Of a DNA stretch of 19,865 bases, positions 1,807 through 8,844 are shown piece after piece (position 1 is the stretch's first letter; every line of letters begins with the position of its first letter). This DNA comes from a virus, in UHGV virus genome UHGV-1448388. One strand, written 5' to 3'. Position numbers and translations under genes: made by a program. Below the pieces are notes generated by a model. The model ran no database searches. It worked only from the letters and a program-made list of their open reading frames with translations, and was not told the DNA's origin.

Positions 1807-2010
1807 TCAACTTTCTGCTCTATCAGTTATATCTTTCCCTTCGTATACTTCACCTATATTGCTAATGCTGGCAGAACATCCAAGATGCTTGTATCTTATG
1901 ATGTCCAACACGCAGTCACTACACAGCATCCGACCTGTTTCTTTAGAGTAAATGTATGTTTGATCAGCGTCTGATTCGCTAATGCCGCAGAAACAACATT
2001 CTTTACTCAT
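1807..2010 (-). CDS. Small Cys4 zinc-ribbon-like protein (67 aa), hypothetical
   Basis: ORF with CxxC (C5, C8) and CxxC (C30, C33) pairs. Strong GAGGGGG Shine-Dalgarno about 7 nt upstream. Its ATG overlaps the arc stop codon (ATGA), implying translational coupling. Confidence 0.45.
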   Translation of the reverse strand: MSKECCFCGISESDADQTYIYSKETGRMLCSDCVLDIIRYKHLGCSASISNIGEVYEGKDITDRAES

Positions 2011-2147
2011 ACCATCACCCCCTCTCTCTTCAAGCTGTCCAGCACCCGTTTAATTACTTCTGCGCTAAACGATCGACACTCTTCCTTTGCTTTCTCTTCA
2101 AGGATTTTTTCTAACTTCTCTGGCATACGCAGTGTTTTTACCTTCAT
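2007..2147 (-). CDS. arc: Arc-like ribbon-helix-helix repressor (46 aa from the internal ATG)
   Basis: MKVKTLRMPEKLEKILEEKAKEECRSFSAEVIKRVLDSLKREG has the beta-strand plus two-helix RHH layout and a size similar to P22 Arc. GGAGGA Shine-Dalgarno 5-6 nt upstream of the ATG at 2147. The longer 68-aa ORF-track version would run through the promoter region. Confidence 0.6.
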   Translation of the reverse strand: MKVKTLRMPEKLEKILEEKAKEECRSFSAEVIKRVLDSLKREGVMV

Positions 2148-2252
2148 TGCATCCTCCGCTGTATGTGGTACGCATACATAGTATTTAGGTACGCATTGAT
2201 AGTCAATAGACACCTACATATCCTGTGGTAAAAAATTATTCAGGGTGTGCCG
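2148..2252. promoter_or_regulatory. Divergent immI-type promoter/operator region (candidate back-to-back sigma70 promoters with repeat elements)
   Basis: Plus-strand candidate: -35 TTGATA (2196-2201), 17-bp spacer, -10 TATCCT (2219-2224). Minus-strand candidate: -35 TTGACT (plus 2201-2206), 17-bp spacer, -10 TACTAT (plus 2178-2183). The two -35 hexamers lie within the palindrome ATTGA-tag-TCAAT (2195-2207). Direct repeats GGTACGCAT at 2167-2175 and 2188-2196 (21 bp apart), and TGTGGTA at 2164-2170 and 2224-2230. Confidence 0.45.
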
Positions 2253-2510
2253 ATGTCTGATCGTAAGTACAAAAACCCTCAAGTGAATCTGAGGCTTCCT
2301 GTAGAGATAAAGGAACGTCTTATTGAACTGGCTGAGGCTAATTCTCGTTCATTAAATGCTGAGATGGTCGCTGCACTTGAAGCATGGACCGAAAAAAATA
2401 AACACATTCAAGCACTAGACCTTGCAACTATAGCATCACGATTGATAGATCTTGAACATGATGTTGAGAAGTTGAAATGCATGTATGGCAACAATAAAGA
2501 CGAAAGTTAG
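2253..2510 (+). CDS. Ribbon-helix-helix DNA-binding protein (Mnt/Arc family paralogue, 85 aa)
   Basis: ATG at 2253; the ORF-track start is a GTG two codons upstream. NPQVNLRLPVEIKERLIELAEANSRSLNAEMVAALEAW fits the RHH beta-strand/helix/helix pattern. AGGGTG Shine-Dalgarno-like sequence upstream. Confidence 0.6.
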   Translation: MSDRKYKNPQVNLRLPVEIKERLIELAEANSRSLNAEMVAALEAWTEKNKHIQALDLATIASRLIDLEHDVEKLKCMYGNNKDES

Positions 2511-2533
2511 AGATACTAACTTGGAGTGATGGC

Positions 2534-2782
2534 ATGGCTAGAGATGATCCGCACTTTAACTTCCGTATGCCTTTGGAAGTAAGAGAAAAATTGAAATTAA
2601 GAGCCGAGGCTAACGGAAGGTCAATGAACTCTGAGTTATTACAAATCGTTCAGGATGCGCTATCAAAACCATCACCGATTGCAGGTTACCGTGACGAAGC
2701 AGAACGTATGGCTGATCAGCAAGCAGAAATTGTTAAGAAGATGGTGTTTGAAACCCTGAAAAAAATGTACGAGACCAGATAG
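2534..2782 (+). CDS. mnt: Mnt repressor (ribbon-helix-helix)
   Basis: 82-aa product MARDDPHFNFRMPLEVREKLKLRAEANGRSMNSELLQIVQDALSKPSP... closely matches P22 Mnt as I recall it. GGAG Shine-Dalgarno 7 nt upstream. Transcribed opposite to arc-ant, as in P22 immI. Confidence 0.85.
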   Translation: MARDDPHFNFRMPLEVREKLKLRAEANGRSMNSELLQIVQDALSKPSPIAGYRDEAERMADQQAEIVKKMVFETLKKMYETR

Positions 2783-2824
2783 GTCAATGTTTGTTCGTTG
2801 ATATAAAATAACAAGGTATACATT

Positions 2825-3424
2825 GTGATTGAGATAGGCGTTATGGCCATCCTGAATCAAGAGCCAGGAAAAATTGAAAACGTTTTTTCTGACATATCAA
2901 CATCTATCGAGCGTTCAATTTCAGACTTTGATCGCAGTCATAGCGGCTCTTTGTCTAAAAAACAGGCTTCTGAAGCTCTTAGCAAGATCTACTGCGTTAT
3001 GTCACCTGTAGAGGAAGTTTGCAAAAAGTACATTACATTCATTGACATATTAAGTAATGGTACAGAAGAAGATATTTCCTCACTTAATATTCAACATGAC
3101 GATGTAGATATGTTGAACGATCAGATATCTAAGCTTGATTATGGTATCGCGAAACTGTTGTATACCTTCTTCATCGCTGAGAACAGCGATGCGTGGAAGC
3201 CCCATATGTCAACTCTTACAACAATGAAAAACCACTCAATCAATACTTTTATAGAATACAAAAGGCTAACAATGGGGCTTGTGACGCTAGCAATGCAGCA
3301 CATACCACTATCATATGCTGAACCTGAAGAGTTCACTGAAGAAGAGTTGGCTTCCTTCAAGAAATCAGTTGAAGATTCACATAAAAGATTTGGCATGGAA
3401 GCACCAAAATGGAAAACCGCATAA
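2825..3424 (+). CDS. Hypothetical acidic protein (199 aa; possibly 193 aa from ATG 2843), first gene of an AT-rich accessory cassette
   Basis: Intact ORF in AT-rich DNA. Start is GTG at 2825 (AAGG 8 nt upstream) or ATG at 2843. The 3' end overlaps the next gene by 16 nt. Acidic composition; no family I recognise. Confidence 0.5.
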   Translation: MIEIGVMAILNQEPGKIENVFSDISTSIERSISDFDRSHSGSLSKKQASEALSKIYCVMSPVEEVCKKYITFIDILSNGTEEDISSLNIQHDDVDMLNDQISKLDYGIAKLLYTFFIAENSDAWKPHMSTLTTMKNHSINTFIEYKRLTMGLVTLAMQHIPLSYAEPEEFTEEELASFKKSVEDSHKRFGMEAPKWKTA

Positions 3425-3828
3425 GCATTGTTGTAGATGCAGCGGCTGGACCATTAGAACAATACTTTGCGAAGGCTCTTGCAAACTACAAAAACAGAGG
3501 CACCGTTTCAGCTTATCTTGGTAAGATTGGTGGGTTTGAGAGAAACCATCACGCCGTCTTATCGGGAATTTACAAGTCGCACATCAGGATCCCTGGAGTA
3601 GATGATCCTTGGTTAAGAACAACGCCAATACATCGTAGAGTTAGCGATAACTTTTTGATATTTGCGGTACACAACACATATCCAATTCATATCCAGATCA
3701 TTGCTATCATTAAACCTGATGGTCATGAGAAGGTAAAAAAACTATTGCCAGCCATCATTGATATAACTGAAAAAAGATTCCAATCTCTAAATGAGAGGGA
3801 GCTTAACTCGTTGATTTCATACAAATAA
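3409..3828 (+). CDS. YafO-family toxin-like protein (139 aa)
   Basis: Motifs ANYKNRG, FERNHHAVL and NFLIFAVHN...IHIQIIAIIKPDGHEK...EKRF align with E. coli YafO (FISYKRDG, FERVAHIHL, AHLVYCQG...AWLLIAILKPEPHK...AEAFRMRF) as I recall it. Basic protein whose start overlaps the upstream acidic ORF. Confidence 0.55.
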   Translation: MENRISIVVDAAAGPLEQYFAKALANYKNRGTVSAYLGKIGGFERNHHAVLSGIYKSHIRIPGVDDPWLRTTPIHRRVSDNFLIFAVHNTYPIHIQIIAIIKPDGHEKVKKLLPAIIDITEKRFQSLNERELNSLISYK

Positions 3829-3850
3829 AATATCAACTAAGGGGGTTGGT

Positions 3851-4174
3851 GTGTATACAACAGTTATCGCGATAGCTATCGCACTCATTGTGGTTCAGTA
3901 CCAACTGGCATCTTTAAAACAAAAGATATCTGACCTCAAGACTGAGAACGAAGCACTTAAAAACTCAATAAAAGATGAGAAGAACAAACTATCATTCACT
4001 ATATCTGATATTGAGCAATCCATTGAAATTATTGAGAATAATATTAACAGATTAAAAAAAGAAGATATTCATGAAATCAATGACAATATCAAGGATTTGA
4101 AATCTTGGCTTAGGAATGTAGGACAAATCGCCACATCAACACGAGATAAGCTCAATACATCCATGGATGATTAA
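3851..4174 (+). CDS. Small membrane-anchored coiled-coil protein (107 aa), hypothetical
   Basis: GTG start with strong AAGGGGG Shine-Dalgarno 5 nt upstream. N-terminal hydrophobic helix YTTVIAIAIALIVVQYQLA, followed by a K/E-rich heptad-like coiled-coil. Very AT-rich. Its stop codon abuts the gp16 stop codon. Confidence 0.5.
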   Translation: MYTTVIAIAIALIVVQYQLASLKQKISDLKTENEALKNSIKDEKNKLSFTISDIEQSIEIIENNINRLKKEDIHEINDNIKDLKSWLRNVGQIATSTRDKLNTSMDD

Positions 4175-6334
4175 TTACTCCTGTGCCATTCCGCTTAGCG
4201 ACGCTACAATGCCAGCCCTCGCTAAGCGATTGAACTCTTCGTTTCCAACTGCATCGCGTATTGCTTTTACGGCGGCTTTATTTGCCATAAATCTGCGTTC
4301 CGCCGCCGCTAATGCTTCTTTACTTCCGCCAGCTCTTACTGCTTTCGTGGCTTCCTGAACTGCTTTCTCTATCGCATACCGACCACTACGTGTGGTGGCA
4401 ATTTTAGATACAGCACCTTTTAGCCCGGCGCCAACTAAAGCACCTGCGGCAGCGCCTGCAATGCCCCCTCCTGCTCCACCAACAATGGCACCTGATGTTG
4501 AATTGGCAATTGCATTTAACACTGTTGATGTGACGTTGGATAAACCGGCATCCAGATCGCGTAGTACATTGGCAGTTCTCCCTGTTCTTTCAATATACTG
4601 CTGAGGTTTCACTGCTGCTCTTGCAAGAGTGCCATATGCATCTGCAATTCTTCCAAGCTCTGAGGAATATCGGCTAATGGCTTTTACATTTTGTGGAGTG
4701 AGTATCTCTGCGATATGGTTAATTCCTGCTGCATCAGCTTTACCACCACGTACACCATGCGAGATAGCATCTTGCAACATTGATGATATAGCAGGAACAC
4801 GCTCTGATTCTGGCAGCGCGCGGATCATAGAATGGAATCCAGCAGGACCATTAAGACCTTTAGCTGACGATGATTGAAGGGATTTTACTCCATTCGTAAT
4901 CAGTGCATCTGTTGCCAAATCACGCCCGAAAACAGACTCTGCACTCTCTTGTGCTGATAACCTCGCTTTAGACAGATCATTAGCTTTTTGCCAGTCATCA
5001 AGAAATCCGCCGTTTTCCGCCATTGTGCGCATATCATCAGTAATTGCCCGGCGTATTTCCCCTGCTCTCCTTGCCGCATTTGCCTCTCCGCTACGCTTAT
5101 ATTTTTGCTCCGCATCAGCAAATTTCGCTCTCCATGCTTTCATGCCGTCAAATGTTACTCCACCTTGATTGTTTGCCTGAACAAACTGTTTCATTTCAGG
5201 AGTAAGCGGTATGCCGGCAGATCGCTCTGCCTGAATAACGGCATTACCATTTAGCATTCTTGCTTTTTGATTTGGCATTGTTGACCGCACGTCATCCCAT
5301 GCCGCGCGCTCGGCATCCTTCATCTGATCAAGATTTTGAAGAATCCTTTGTTTTATAGCCGCACTTTTTTCTGATGCCGTTCCAGATGCGGCCCCAAATT
5401 CATCAAGGTTTCGACTTAACTTTGATGATATTTCGTTAAATGCTGCCTGATGGGCGTCCTGAACAATTCCTGGTGTTGATGCCAATGCGCCTTCGGCTTG
5501 TGCAATTCCACGACTTCCAGATCGCATTCCTGGTGTTAATGCGTTTATATCAATTCCAGCAGACTCAGCCGCTTTTGCTACATCTTCGGACACATTAGCG
5601 GCCTGACTGGCAATTGACTGACGCCCAGCACCTGACTTTGCCATCCTAGAAACATCATTAGCAGAATTCAGTGCTGCACCACCAAGAGCCTGTGAAACCC
5701 TTGGCGCAATAACGCGCCCGACACCTGAAAGAACGCCTTGAGCACCAATATTGATACCACCGTTAATGGCAGCATTTTGTGCAAAGTCGCCCTCCTGATT
5801 TGCAGCATCAGCAAGAGAACCTGCAATCATGTTTCCGGCGGAACCGATATCTCCAGCGAGCTTTGCTGTCGCTCCAGCAGCTTTTGCCGCTGTGCCAATT
5901 GGCAGGAGATACCCACCAATTGTTTCACCGGCTTGCGCGTAAGGGTCTGTCGGTCGCTCGGCAGGGCGATAAACATCATCCAAAACCTTGGGGCCGCCAA
6001 GCCCCTGGCTGATTGCATTAATCAGACTTGCGCCACCCTGCAATACGTCAAATGGTATGTTTACCAGACCACGACCAGCCTGTTCTGCAATTTGCCCTGC
6101 ACTTTGACCACCTGTGAGCCAATCACCAGCTTGTTGCATCAATGATGGTTCTTCTTTCTGCTGCTGAGGCGGAGGGTATGCTGCATAAAACTGATCTCTT
6201 GCTTCAGCCCATTTGTCACCAGCCTTAGGGGCAACAACCTCATCAAAATATTGCGCTTGAGCCTGTGCTTTCTGTTCTTCAGTTAACGCCTGATACTGTG
6301 GAGAAGCGATAACATCTTTCCATGCTTTAGCCAT
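4175..6334 (-). CDS. DNA ejection (injection) protein, P22 gp16-like
   Basis: 719-aa ORF in the gp16 position after gp20. Ala/Gly-rich with low-complexity segments. Start overlaps the gp20 stop (TAATG). Confidence 0.7.
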
Positions 6335-7693: not shown

Positions 7694-8386
7694 TTAAAAC
7701 AACGAGCCAAGCAGACCAAGACCAGCACCGATACCAGCACCCCACGGAGTTGATAGCTCGAGAGCACTGGCTATGCCACCACCCAAAAGCGCACCGGATG
7801 CAGCACCACTAACACCCTGCCGCAATGCTGACGGTCGGTTGGCGTTTGCCGCTGCAAGAGCCGCGCTTTGCTGTGAAATCTGACTCATGTTGTTGGCATA
7901 TGTTTGCCCGGCGTTTGCCTGCCCCTGAAGAGCGCCAAGACCGATATTTGCCAGGTTGTTGTAATTGTTCATTTGTCCAGATAGCCATTGCTGACCAAGC
8001 GTTGGTGCGATTGTTGCTAACTGATTACTGGTTGCGGTGGAACCCAATCCACCTGTTGCTTCCGCTGCCGCCAGACTCTGATAGCGAGCCTGACCTGCAA
8101 GGTCTTTATACTGCTGAGAGTTGTAATACTGGTTAAGTGCCTGACCTTGCCCTTCCAGAGACGATAAGTTCTCAAGGCTGCCGACATACTTCCCAGCCAG
8201 AGGAGTAAACAGCTTCAGGTTGTTCATGATGGTGTTGAACTGCTGATTTTGCAGGTCTGCGGCATACTTCTGAGCTTCTGCTGCATACTTTGCGCTTTTA
8301 TCAGAACTGCCACCTTTCCCGCCTTTTTCAGGGTAATAAGGTTCCTCGCCGCGCAGTTTTCTGCCCAGCGTAAATGCATATAACAT
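7694..8386 (-). CDS. DNA ejection protein, P22 gp7-like
   Basis: 230-aa ORF (P22 gp7 is about 229 aa). Gly-rich hydrophobic C-terminus. Position after gp14. Confidence 0.7.
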   Translation of the reverse strand: MLYAFTLGRKLRGEEPYYPEKGGKGGSSDKSAKYAAEAQKYAADLQNQQFNTIMNNLKLFTPLAGKYVGSLENLSSLEGQGQALNQYYNSQQYKDLAGQARYQSLAAAEATGGLGSTATSNQLATIAPTLGQQWLSGQMNNYNNLANIGLGALQGQANAGQTYANNMSQISQQSAALAAANANRPSALRQGVSGAASGALLGGGIASALELSTPWGAGIGAGLGLLGSLF

Positions 8387-8388
8387 GG

Positions 8389-8844
8389 CTATCTCCCGTG
8401 ATTCAGGAAGTCGATTAGTTCTTCGCGTGTGGCGCTGTAAAACGTCACGTCATCCACGCCTTTGAAGTATTTCTTGATGGTTCCTACACGCTTAAGGCCA
8501 ATCATTGCGCAGTACATCTGCCCGTGGCGGAATTTGCGTGCAGCAAATGATGTGACGCACTGAACGGTGGTGTTGGTCAGAATGTATCGCCAGAACGCCA
8601 GCCCTATTTCCTTGCTGAAGCCGCGAATCTCTGGCAGGTACATGGCGTGGCAATCGAATGTAAGCGGCTGAATCTCCTGATAGTAAACAATGCCGCCAAA
8701 CTGACCGTGCACGTTCACCTCAAAGTAACGGCAATCAGGTTTGTAGTCGTATCCATCACCGTTGTTGCTCCCGGCGATGATGTCAGGGTGATTTCCTACT
8801 GCTTCGATCAGGTCGATGTTTCGCGTTGGTTTGAATGTAATCAT
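8389..8844 (-). CDS. P22 gp14-like head assembly / ejection-associated protein
   Basis: 151-aa ORF in the gp14 position; start overlaps the gp26 stop (ATGA). Confidence 0.6.
   Translation of the reverse strand: MITFKPTRNIDLIEAVGNHPDIIAGSNNGDGYDYKPDCRYFEVNVHGQFGGIVYYQEIQPLTFDCHAMYLPEIRGFSKEIGLAFWRYILTNTTVQCVTSFAARKFRHGQMYCAMIGLKRVGTIKKYFKGVDDVTFYSATREELIDFLNHGR

Follow-up and report, generated by a model that had tools for sequence, protein, structure and literature searches.

The hkcB gene and its locus

The stretch of DNA considered here, referred to as the window, covers 19,865 nucleotides (nt) of the virus genome UHGV-1448388. In a megablast comparison its positions 2800-4200 matched Enterobacteria phage CUS-3 (CP000711.1), a prophage of E. 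coli K1 strain RS218 that belongs to the genus Lederbergvirus, with 100% identity over the full length, and the window is identified with this phage. The open reading frame (ORF) at 3851-4174 on the + strand bears in CP000711.1 the annotation "hkcB, hypothetical protein", a name taken from phage HK620, where a homologue lies at the equivalent position. Having been annotated since 2001, hkcB is not new as a gene. What is new is that its product belongs to a constrained and narrow family, that the gene lies stop to stop with gene 16 independently of what is found upstream, that it is mutually exclusive with the superinfection exclusion gene sieA of phage P22, and that the protein has a build like that of HK97 gp15.

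The gene is the fifth and last of a series of closely spaced + strand genes (2247-2510, 2534-2782, 2825-3424, 3409-3828 and 3851-4174, separated by 23, 42, -16 and 22 nt), which comprises two mnt/Arc-like repressor genes, an ORF of 199 amino acids (aa; orf199), a YafO-like gene and hkcB itself. An earlier sequence-only reading had described it as the closing gene of an accessory cassette, located in AT-rich DNA next to ejection-protein genes and preceded by an AAGGGGG ribosome-binding site, and all of these statements were borne out: the GC content is 33.0% compared with 47.7% for the whole window, the Shine-Dalgarno sequence stands just before the GTG start, and the stop codon touches that of gene 16 (Table 1). 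The block AACTAAGG(A/G)GGTTGGTGTG around the Shine-Dalgarno sequence is kept in nearly all relatives from Escherichia and Salmonella, and most hkcB loci have in common the leader TGGTATCCTGCNCAAAACTAAGGAGGTTGGTGTG, of which only AACTAAGGGGGTTGGTGTG remains in CUS-3.

Table 1. Features of hkcB, of its protein product and of the adjacent DNA (positions in the window)
Feature	Position	Strand	Basis
hkcB coding sequence, 107 aa, GTG start, TAA stop	3851..4174	+	ORF list; CP000711.1 annotation; PHROG 5962; ratio of non-synonymous to synonymous change
Shine-Dalgarno AAGGGGG, 5 nt before the GTG start	3839..3845	+	sequence
Residues 2-22, YTTVIAIAIALIVVQYQLASL, predicted single hydrophobic membrane-spanning segment at the extreme N-terminus	3854..3916	+	hydropathy; positive-inside rule
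Residues 23-85, variable amphipathic helical region, heptad-like segments with register shifts	3917..4105	+	AlphaFold2 helix; register scan; non-synonymous change above that of the C-terminal third
Residues 86-91, W-x-x-N-V-G, sole invariant block of the family	4106..4123	+	alignment including members at 27-36% identity
Residues 92-107, conserved tail IATSTRDKLN(P/T)SMDD	4124..4171	+	alignments
Stop-to-stop junction TAATTA, hkcB stop touching gene 16 stop	4172..4177	.	0 nt between the stops
Homologue of gene 16, convergent with hkcB, for an ejection / DNA transfer protein of 719 aa	4175..6334	-	annotation; 77% identical to HK620 gp16
Upstream same-strand genes, probably one transcription unit with hkcB	2247..3828	+	Pfam Arc, Repressor_Mnt and YafO_toxin; small gaps; no terminator-like site
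Promoter-like sites just upstream of mnt, candidate Pmnt	2196..2236	+	consensus scan, count not above chance; analogy with P22 Pmnt
Promoter-like TTAACT-17-TAAAAT within the YafO-like gene, at its 3' end; may serve hkcB in CUS-3 as a promoter of its own	3803..3831	+	9/12 matches, not above chance

The genomic context and the selection acting on hkcB were studied in 73 fetched loci with intact homologues, which represent 36 distinct DNA sequences and 32 distinct proteins. The stop of hkcB abuts the convergent stop of gene 16 (TAATTA, gap of 0 nt) in 66 of the 73 loci, and a gap of 3-4 nt was found in the two most distant members, from Serratia and from a metagenome; the linkage spans lineages down to about 25% identity. 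The remaining exceptions are one C-terminally truncated copy of hkcB (gap of 19 nt), three loci without an adjacent gene 16 homologue and one contig that ends before the downstream ORF. On the upstream side the neighbour varies, being a divergent lipoprotein gene like gene 15 of phage epsilon34 (14 loci), a divergent hkcC (10), a YafO-like gene (6), a ClpP-like gene (4) or others, while in 26 loci mnt lies directly upstream on the same strand. The latter arrangement, together with the low GC content and the orientation antisense to the late operon, gives hkcB the signature of a moron. The epsilon34 genome paper places the homologue gp14, without a known function, in the "ant moron", a variable region that separates gene 16 from the gene for the tailspike and is otherwise in rapid flux (PMC2629481). 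Within this fluctuating region hkcB is the one stable element.

The gp16 next to hkcB is always of the CUS-3/HK620 family in the Escherichia and Salmonella loci (61-100% identity), and the distant members (L009 and L010) adjoin a gp16 of a different type. This family resembles P22 gp16 only at residues 64-218. CUS-3 gp16 is thus a mosaic in comparison with the P22 protein, being 69% identical over these residues and showing no BLASTP similarity in the rest, and it gave no Pfam match in the copy used. By BLASTP it is 77% identical to HK620 gp16 (L002, 4123-6291); a value of 26% was given for the same pair when their differing sensitivity to SieA was explained (PMC10883804). A Gly/Ala-rich hydrophobic stretch at 4424-4501 (- strand), corresponding to gp16 residues ~612-637 and ~80 residues from the C-terminus, may be a membrane-inserting segment near the conserved junction with hkcB. 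Mimicry of a gp16 segment by HkcB, considered for IATSTR against the IATTRS adjoining this Gly-rich stretch, was rejected, as the best BLASTP match had E=2 and left the segment unaligned.

A narrow family of predicted inner-membrane proteins

HkcB matches PHROG 5962, a family of unknown function, with E=5.7e-58, residues 1-107 aligning on profile positions 3-109 of 109. The CUS-3 protein is 98% identical to epsilon34 gp14 and 50% identical to HK620 HkcB; these are true homologues that share its position, GTG start and leader, none differing in kind and all being uncharacterised (PMC2629481). It is a small family, whose members came from P22-like phages and prophages of Escherichia, Salmonella and Serratia only, apart from one metagenome member. 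A word-indexed search of 5.8 billion proteins returned 18 clusters, and an exhaustive profile search of 1.84 billion representatives gave 11 matches at E<=1e-3, of which about six are true relatives and none belongs to a characterised family. Through tblastn, the protein was detected among 50,697 phage records only in CUS-3, epsilon34, SEN22, HK620 and vB_EcoP-611R6, and the GTDB species-representative genomes scanned contained no relatives. Of 5426 complete E. coli genomes, 155 carry HkcB-like DNA, always on the chromosome; UTI89, NU14 and other K1 or extraintestinal pathogenic (ExPEC) strains are among them. A P22-like gene 16 segment was found in 611. One family member (P0012, JGI) is called "chromosome segregation ATPase" by one source, which is a coiled-coil artefact of automatic annotation. 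In E. coli HCM-22C-2 just the first 103 nt of the hkcB module are left (L008, 4001-4103), fused to a truncated replicative helicase gene, and this locus is therefore the remnant of a deleted P22-like prophage.

The comparison of divergent members demonstrates that hkcB is a real gene under purifying selection. Divergent pairs, which approach saturation at synonymous sites (proportion of synonymous differences, pS, 0.5-0.9), have Nei-Gojobori ratios of non-synonymous to synonymous substitution (dN/dS) of 0.12-0.25. Ratios near 1 were obtained for very close CUS-3-type variants, from a handful of changes only. The constraint is strongest in the C-terminal third, where HK620-type and other types differ with a proportion of non-synonymous differences (pN) of 0.13-0.16 and a pS of 0.49-0.85; because pN is low despite nearly saturated pS, the C-terminus must have been kept at the protein level and is not just recently shared DNA. 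The most distant members, from Serratia marcescens (P0019, 36% identity) and from the metagenome (P0021, 27%), reduce the residues that are invariant across the whole family to E32, L47 and the block W86-x-x-N89-V90-G91, and the tail IATSTRDKLNPSMDD is nearly invariant within Escherichia and Salmonella. Such concentration of selection on a C-terminal module suggests a specific partner. Residue 103 (window 4157-4159) is Thr in CUS-3 and in the identical sequences of the RS218 lineage, and Pro (NPSMDD) in nearly all other members.

With regard to its architecture, HkcB is predicted to be a small bitopic inner-membrane protein, in which an N-terminal helix serves as anchor for a helical stalk of about 85 residues. 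The single N-terminal transmembrane helix proposed by the sequence-only reading stood up well: residues 2-22 have a Kyte-Doolittle mean of 2.6 over 15 residues and of 2.07 over 19. What follows is charged and polar, with hydrophobic residues spaced by 3-4 positions, and AlphaFold2 modelled the protein as one helix over residues 2-106 (mean predicted local distance difference test score 78, from an alignment of 11 sequences). A search of BFVD with this model returned zero matches, as expected for a single long helix. The further claim of a K/E-rich heptad coiled coil stood in part. Three heptad-like segments can be recognised (about 19-47, 51-68 and 73-101), but the register shifts between them, the best period over the whole soluble part is 3.6, and a continuous heptad repeat across the soluble domain had to be rejected, since 0.13-0.39 of shuffled sequences reach its power at period 3.5. 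"Heptad coiled coil" is therefore a fair shorthand and does not denote a continuous canonical repeat; as to composition, Ile (16) outnumbers Lys (12) and Glu (8), with 10 Leu, 10 Asn, 9 Asp and 9 Ser. The stalk is probably oligomeric and most likely faces the cytoplasm. All 10 divergent representatives lack Lys and Arg ahead of the hydrophobic segment, some having Glu there, and carry 2-3 Lys/Arg within the 15 residues after it; under the positive-inside rule this distribution predicts an N-out/C-in topology, with the helical domain and the conserved tail in the cytoplasm.

The sieA slot and a proposed role in superinfection exclusion

In P22, a distance of 22 nt separates gene 16 from the gene sieA, which lies downstream of it in convergent orientation, on the strand of mnt. 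The same slot and orientation are shared by hkcB, which lies on the mnt strand between the homologues of gene 16 and gene 9, inside the ant moron, so that CUS-3, HK620 and epsilon34 hold hkcB where P22 holds sieA. None of the 73 hkcB loci gave a tblastn match to P22 SieA, and a six-frame regular-expression search for the SieA motif FxRYPxEAxxFNK with two substitutions allowed retrieved P22 itself only and 0 of the 73 loci. Leavitt and others described that escape mutations from SieA map to the C-terminal regions of gp16 and gp20; P22 SieA fully excludes CUS-3, and sieA was carried by only 22 of 66 P22-like phages in a 2023 survey (Leavitt et al., 2024; PMC10883804). HkcB and SieA, of which types A-C are distinguished, have further features in common: both are located in the inner membrane (a prediction in the case of HkcB), and in each the best conserved motif is found close to the C-terminus, on the side predicted to be cytoplasmic. 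On the other hand, sieA differs in having its own 22-nt spacer and its own promoter, PsieA.

The slot was also inspected in P22-like E. coli prophages without hkcB. One of them (L080) holds there a 161-aa lipoprotein (7707-8192, -) followed by a 104-aa secreted protein (8218-8532, -), and another (L081) holds a 122-aa protein. In a third (L082, E. coli ETEC4077) the slot is occupied by an ORF of ~62 aa with two hydrophobic segments (~8129-8317, -), which uses the same leader, ribosome-binding site and GTG as hkcB and adjoins a 754-aa gp16 of another type. Because of what these three prophages contain, the slot beside gene 16 appears to be reserved for small envelope proteins. Envelope proteins dominate the ant moron region near gene 16 in general; the genes found there in L080 and in L003 (3479-3898, -) specify either lipoproteins, with the lipoboxes LLAGC and MLSGC, or a secreted protein.

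In architecture, the nearest analogue of known activity is the YebO-related exclusion protein gp15 of HK97 (62 aa, MEPLVVVFGIFGWMINLIVIFYLLRFSTRANEQVEALKEINKKQDAQIDLLIQVAHQRKDSL). Inserted in the inner membrane, it prevents DNA from entering, and exclusion is abolished by swapping tail genes (PMC3594210). Like HkcB, it has a transmembrane segment at the extreme N-terminus, an acidic or uncharged N-terminal end, basic residues after the segment and a helical tail rich in Lys, Glu and Gln, and its gene is a small moron adjoining the gene for a DNA conduit, the tape measure gene, as hkcB adjoins gene 16. It differs in its length (62 against 107 aa), in lying on the tail-operon strand with its own terminator, and in acting on long-tailed phages.

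The position of hkcB, its mutual exclusion with sieA, the envelope proteins typical of the slot, an architecture like that of gp15 and the constraint on the C-terminal module lead us to the tentative proposal, which we hold with clearly less than even confidence, that HkcB acts in superinfection exclusion. Expressed from the prophage and placed in the inner membrane, it would interfere with the gp20/gp16 conduit when P22-like phages come in. The N-terminal helix would anchor the protein in the inner membrane, and the stalk would face the cytoplasm and end in the conserved W-x-x-N-V-G...IATSTRDKLNPSMDD module. From there HkcB could disturb the assembly or the opening of the DNA conduit formed by gp20 and gp16 of the incoming phage, whose DNA would thereby be kept out of the cytoplasm; the unrelated, multi-pass SieA may do likewise from the equivalent slot in P22. 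We infer in this way the topology of HkcB, its expression in the lysogen, its exclusion activity and its target. The suggestion of the sequence-only reading that the product is an inner-membrane factor blocking the entry of phage DNA accordingly stays plausible by analogy, through the slot shared with sieA, the lack of co-occurrence with that gene, the envelope proteins found in the slot and the likeness to gp15, and it gains nothing from homology or from the defence models of PADLOC.

As regards expression, mnt and sieA of P22 are expressed in the prophage (PMC10883804), and by this analogy the CUS-3 lysogen probably expresses hkcB, as the final member of the mnt transcription unit. A scan for terminator-like sites on the + strand of 2300-4600 found none. 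In lytic growth, antisense late transcription probably opposes hkcB.

Several results weigh against an exclusion role. HkcB has no sequence relationship with SieA (hhalign probability of 0.4%), and the latter is a multi-pass protein, with three spans by the same hydropathy scan that gives one in HkcB. Comparison with HK97 gp15 and the YebO family gave an hhalign probability of 0.4% over 9 aligned columns, hence no homology. PADLOC-DB 2.0 provided no match to a defence model, only coiled-coil matches to SMC-like arms at E~1e-3 and 14-16 bits, and the searches of Pfam, NCBIfam, PADLOC and PDB sequences produced nothing beyond sub-threshold generic coiled-coil noise. A literature search by gene name, protein accessions and topic revealed no functional study of HkcB and no experiment on it. 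The topology and the lysogenic expression are themselves predictions, and the promoter-like sites are not above chance. Finally, the association of HkcB with one gp16 type in the Escherichia and Salmonella loci could reflect plain linkage, or a role in the phage's own cycle.

A bolder version of the proposal starts from the genes for immunity to pore-forming colicins, in which a small inner-membrane protein is encoded directly downstream of a gene whose product inserts into membranes, the two genes converging. The likeness to hkcB and gene 16 is one of gene layout only, the colicin immunity proteins being multi-pass. It is conceivable, though we consider it rather unlikely, that the 3' end of gene 16 is a site where unrelated, "immunity-like" envelope proteins (SieA, HkcB, lipoproteins, the 62-aa protein) are swapped and inherited together with the C-terminal type of gp16, and that HkcB is a cytoplasm-facing, membrane-anchored helical oligomer whose W-x-x-N-V-G tail caps the incoming gp16 channel or causes its mis-assembly. 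This would amount to a new mechanism and a new family of DNA-entry exclusion for short-tailed phages. In this group, SieA is the only protein that informs on the building of a trans-envelope DNA conduit by such phages and on its jamming by resident prophages. If another protein, of unrelated and far simpler build, acted from this locus too, it would provide an independent handle on the function of gp16 and gp20. It would also help to explain why sieA is lacking from two thirds of the P22-like phages surveyed (PMC10883804). Should HkcB exclude phages, this would bear on the phage susceptibility of clinical E. coli lineages, and the protein would represent a non-homologous version of an already known type of exclusion; should it not, hkcB stays an ordinary uncharacterised moron gene.

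Alternative roles and further features of the region

The alternative that survives best, a possible one that we nevertheless regard as doubtful, sees in HkcB an envelope protein that the prophage expresses for some other benefit, such as shielding the cell from colicins or unrelated phages, or altering the physiology of the envelope or the tolerance of stress. The moron features on which exclusion relies (low GC content, mnt strand, membrane anchor) serve this explanation equally, the cargo of the ant moron is varied, with ClpP-like, YafO-like and lipoprotein genes, and HkcB has no homology to any exclusion protein. However, a benefit of this kind leaves unexplained both the fixed attachment of hkcB to the 3' end of gene 16 in a region of rapid flux (PMC2629481) and the fact that hkcB replaces sieA instead of joining it.

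Another alternative is a part for HkcB in the cycle of the phage itself, in concert with its type of gp16. Made early after infection or induction, the protein could act either by preventing re-injection of the infected cell or by preventing new gp16 from damaging the membrane from inside. In Escherichia and Salmonella, the gp16 beside hkcB comes without exception from the CUS-3/HK620 family, the two genes keep their stop-to-stop junction, and conservation is high on both sides of it, over the C-terminal 70 residues of gp16 and the C-terminal 40 of HkcB. We judge this role improbable all the same. Late transcription should work against the expression of hkcB, which is antisense to the late operon. 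In addition, HkcB types and gp16 subtypes are reshuffled: the CUS-3-like and HK620-like types of HkcB, 50% identical to each other, are each found with either gp16 subtype, and the HK620 type occurs next to a 96-99% CUS-3-like gp16 in 11 loci (e.g., L043, L068 and L074). The similarity between HkcB and gp16 themselves is not significant.

A host target was considered as well, namely that HkcB mimics or binds bitopic coiled-coil proteins of the divisome or cell wall (FtsB/DivIC/FtsL-like or ZapG/YhcB-like) and so modulates division or growth. FtsB, DivIC and FtsL, like the Rz inner-membrane spanins, consist of one transmembrane segment followed by a coiled-coil-like helix, and profile matches to HkcB below threshold exist. 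Six of 13 members gave weak matches to Pfam DivIC (PF04977) at the junction of membrane segment and zipper (residues 15-44; best 21.2 bits), NCBIfam FtsL matched at E=0.013-0.036, and the membrane segment contains the polar Q16/Q18. Nevertheless, all of these matches fall under the curated cut-offs (the DivIC gathering score is 28.9), and many unrelated coiled-coil families score alike. The N-terminus of FtsB is basic (N-in), a feature that HkcB lacks, and for both FtsB and the Rz spanins the topology is opposite to that predicted for HkcB. Their genomic contexts are unlike that of hkcB, and CUS-3 already has kil. A divisome role therefore has, in our estimate, a low probability.

The sequence-only reading had also linked the protein with its YafO-like neighbour, and in CUS-3 just 22 nt separate hkcB from the YafO-like gene that precedes it on this strand, as would suit a membrane effector or an antitoxin of a common module. 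The survey of the 73 loci all but rules out this partnership, leaving it a very small residual probability: no more than 6 loci have the YafO-like gene next to hkcB on the upstream side, each HkcB type is found in its presence as well as in its absence, and the pair it forms with orf199 moves as a cassette of its own, found with the CUS-3-like as well as the HK620-like type. Least probable of all is an Rz-like inner-membrane spanin or other lysis protein, which the membrane segment followed by a helix resembling a periplasmic stalk and PHROG matches to Rz-like spanins (E=0.003-0.005) might recall, and which is ruled out by context, given that a complete S-R-Rz/Rz1 cassette is present elsewhere in CUS-3, that no lipobox or ORF for an outer-membrane spanin lipoprotein is embedded in or located beside hkcB, and that the gene is antisense to the late operon and its product is without a basic N-terminus.

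Some additional observations concern the surroundings of hkcB. A perfect 10-bp inverted repeat, CGCTTAGCGA ... TCGCTAAGCG, lies at 4191-4229, 17 nt beyond the stop of hkcB and within the 3' end of gene 16, and carries an uncompensated mismatch in HK620-type loci. It was considered as an intrinsic terminator and rejected; the repeat folds (centroid -19.2 kcal/mol), but with z=-1.44 against shuffles and without a U-tract.

At the other end of the cassette, the mnt/Arc-like repressor genes at 2247-2510 and 2534-2782 (+) stand in tandem, and the Mnt C-terminal domain is present only in the second. The epsilon34 genome paper reported that arc is apparently missing from CUS-3 (PMC2629481). An unannotated Arc-like ORF was found at 2007-2213 (-), with a Pfam Arc score of 32.5 bits (cut-off 20.4; E=7.5e-8), beside a Cys-rich ORF of 67 aa at 1807-2010 (-), and both lie inside the "bsq2 boundary sequence" of the CUS-3 record.

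The YafO-like gene (3409-3828, +) matches YafO_toxin (PF13957) in Pfam with E=3e-11. It is overlapped by 16 nt by orf199 (2825-3424, +; 199 aa), which belongs to no family except PHROG 18235, and this overlap has a layout like that of toxin-antitoxin pairs, without a recognisable antitoxin. The orf199/YafO-like pair returns as a 99%-identical cassette with HK620-type hkcB in four other loci (L064, L065, L067 and L073).

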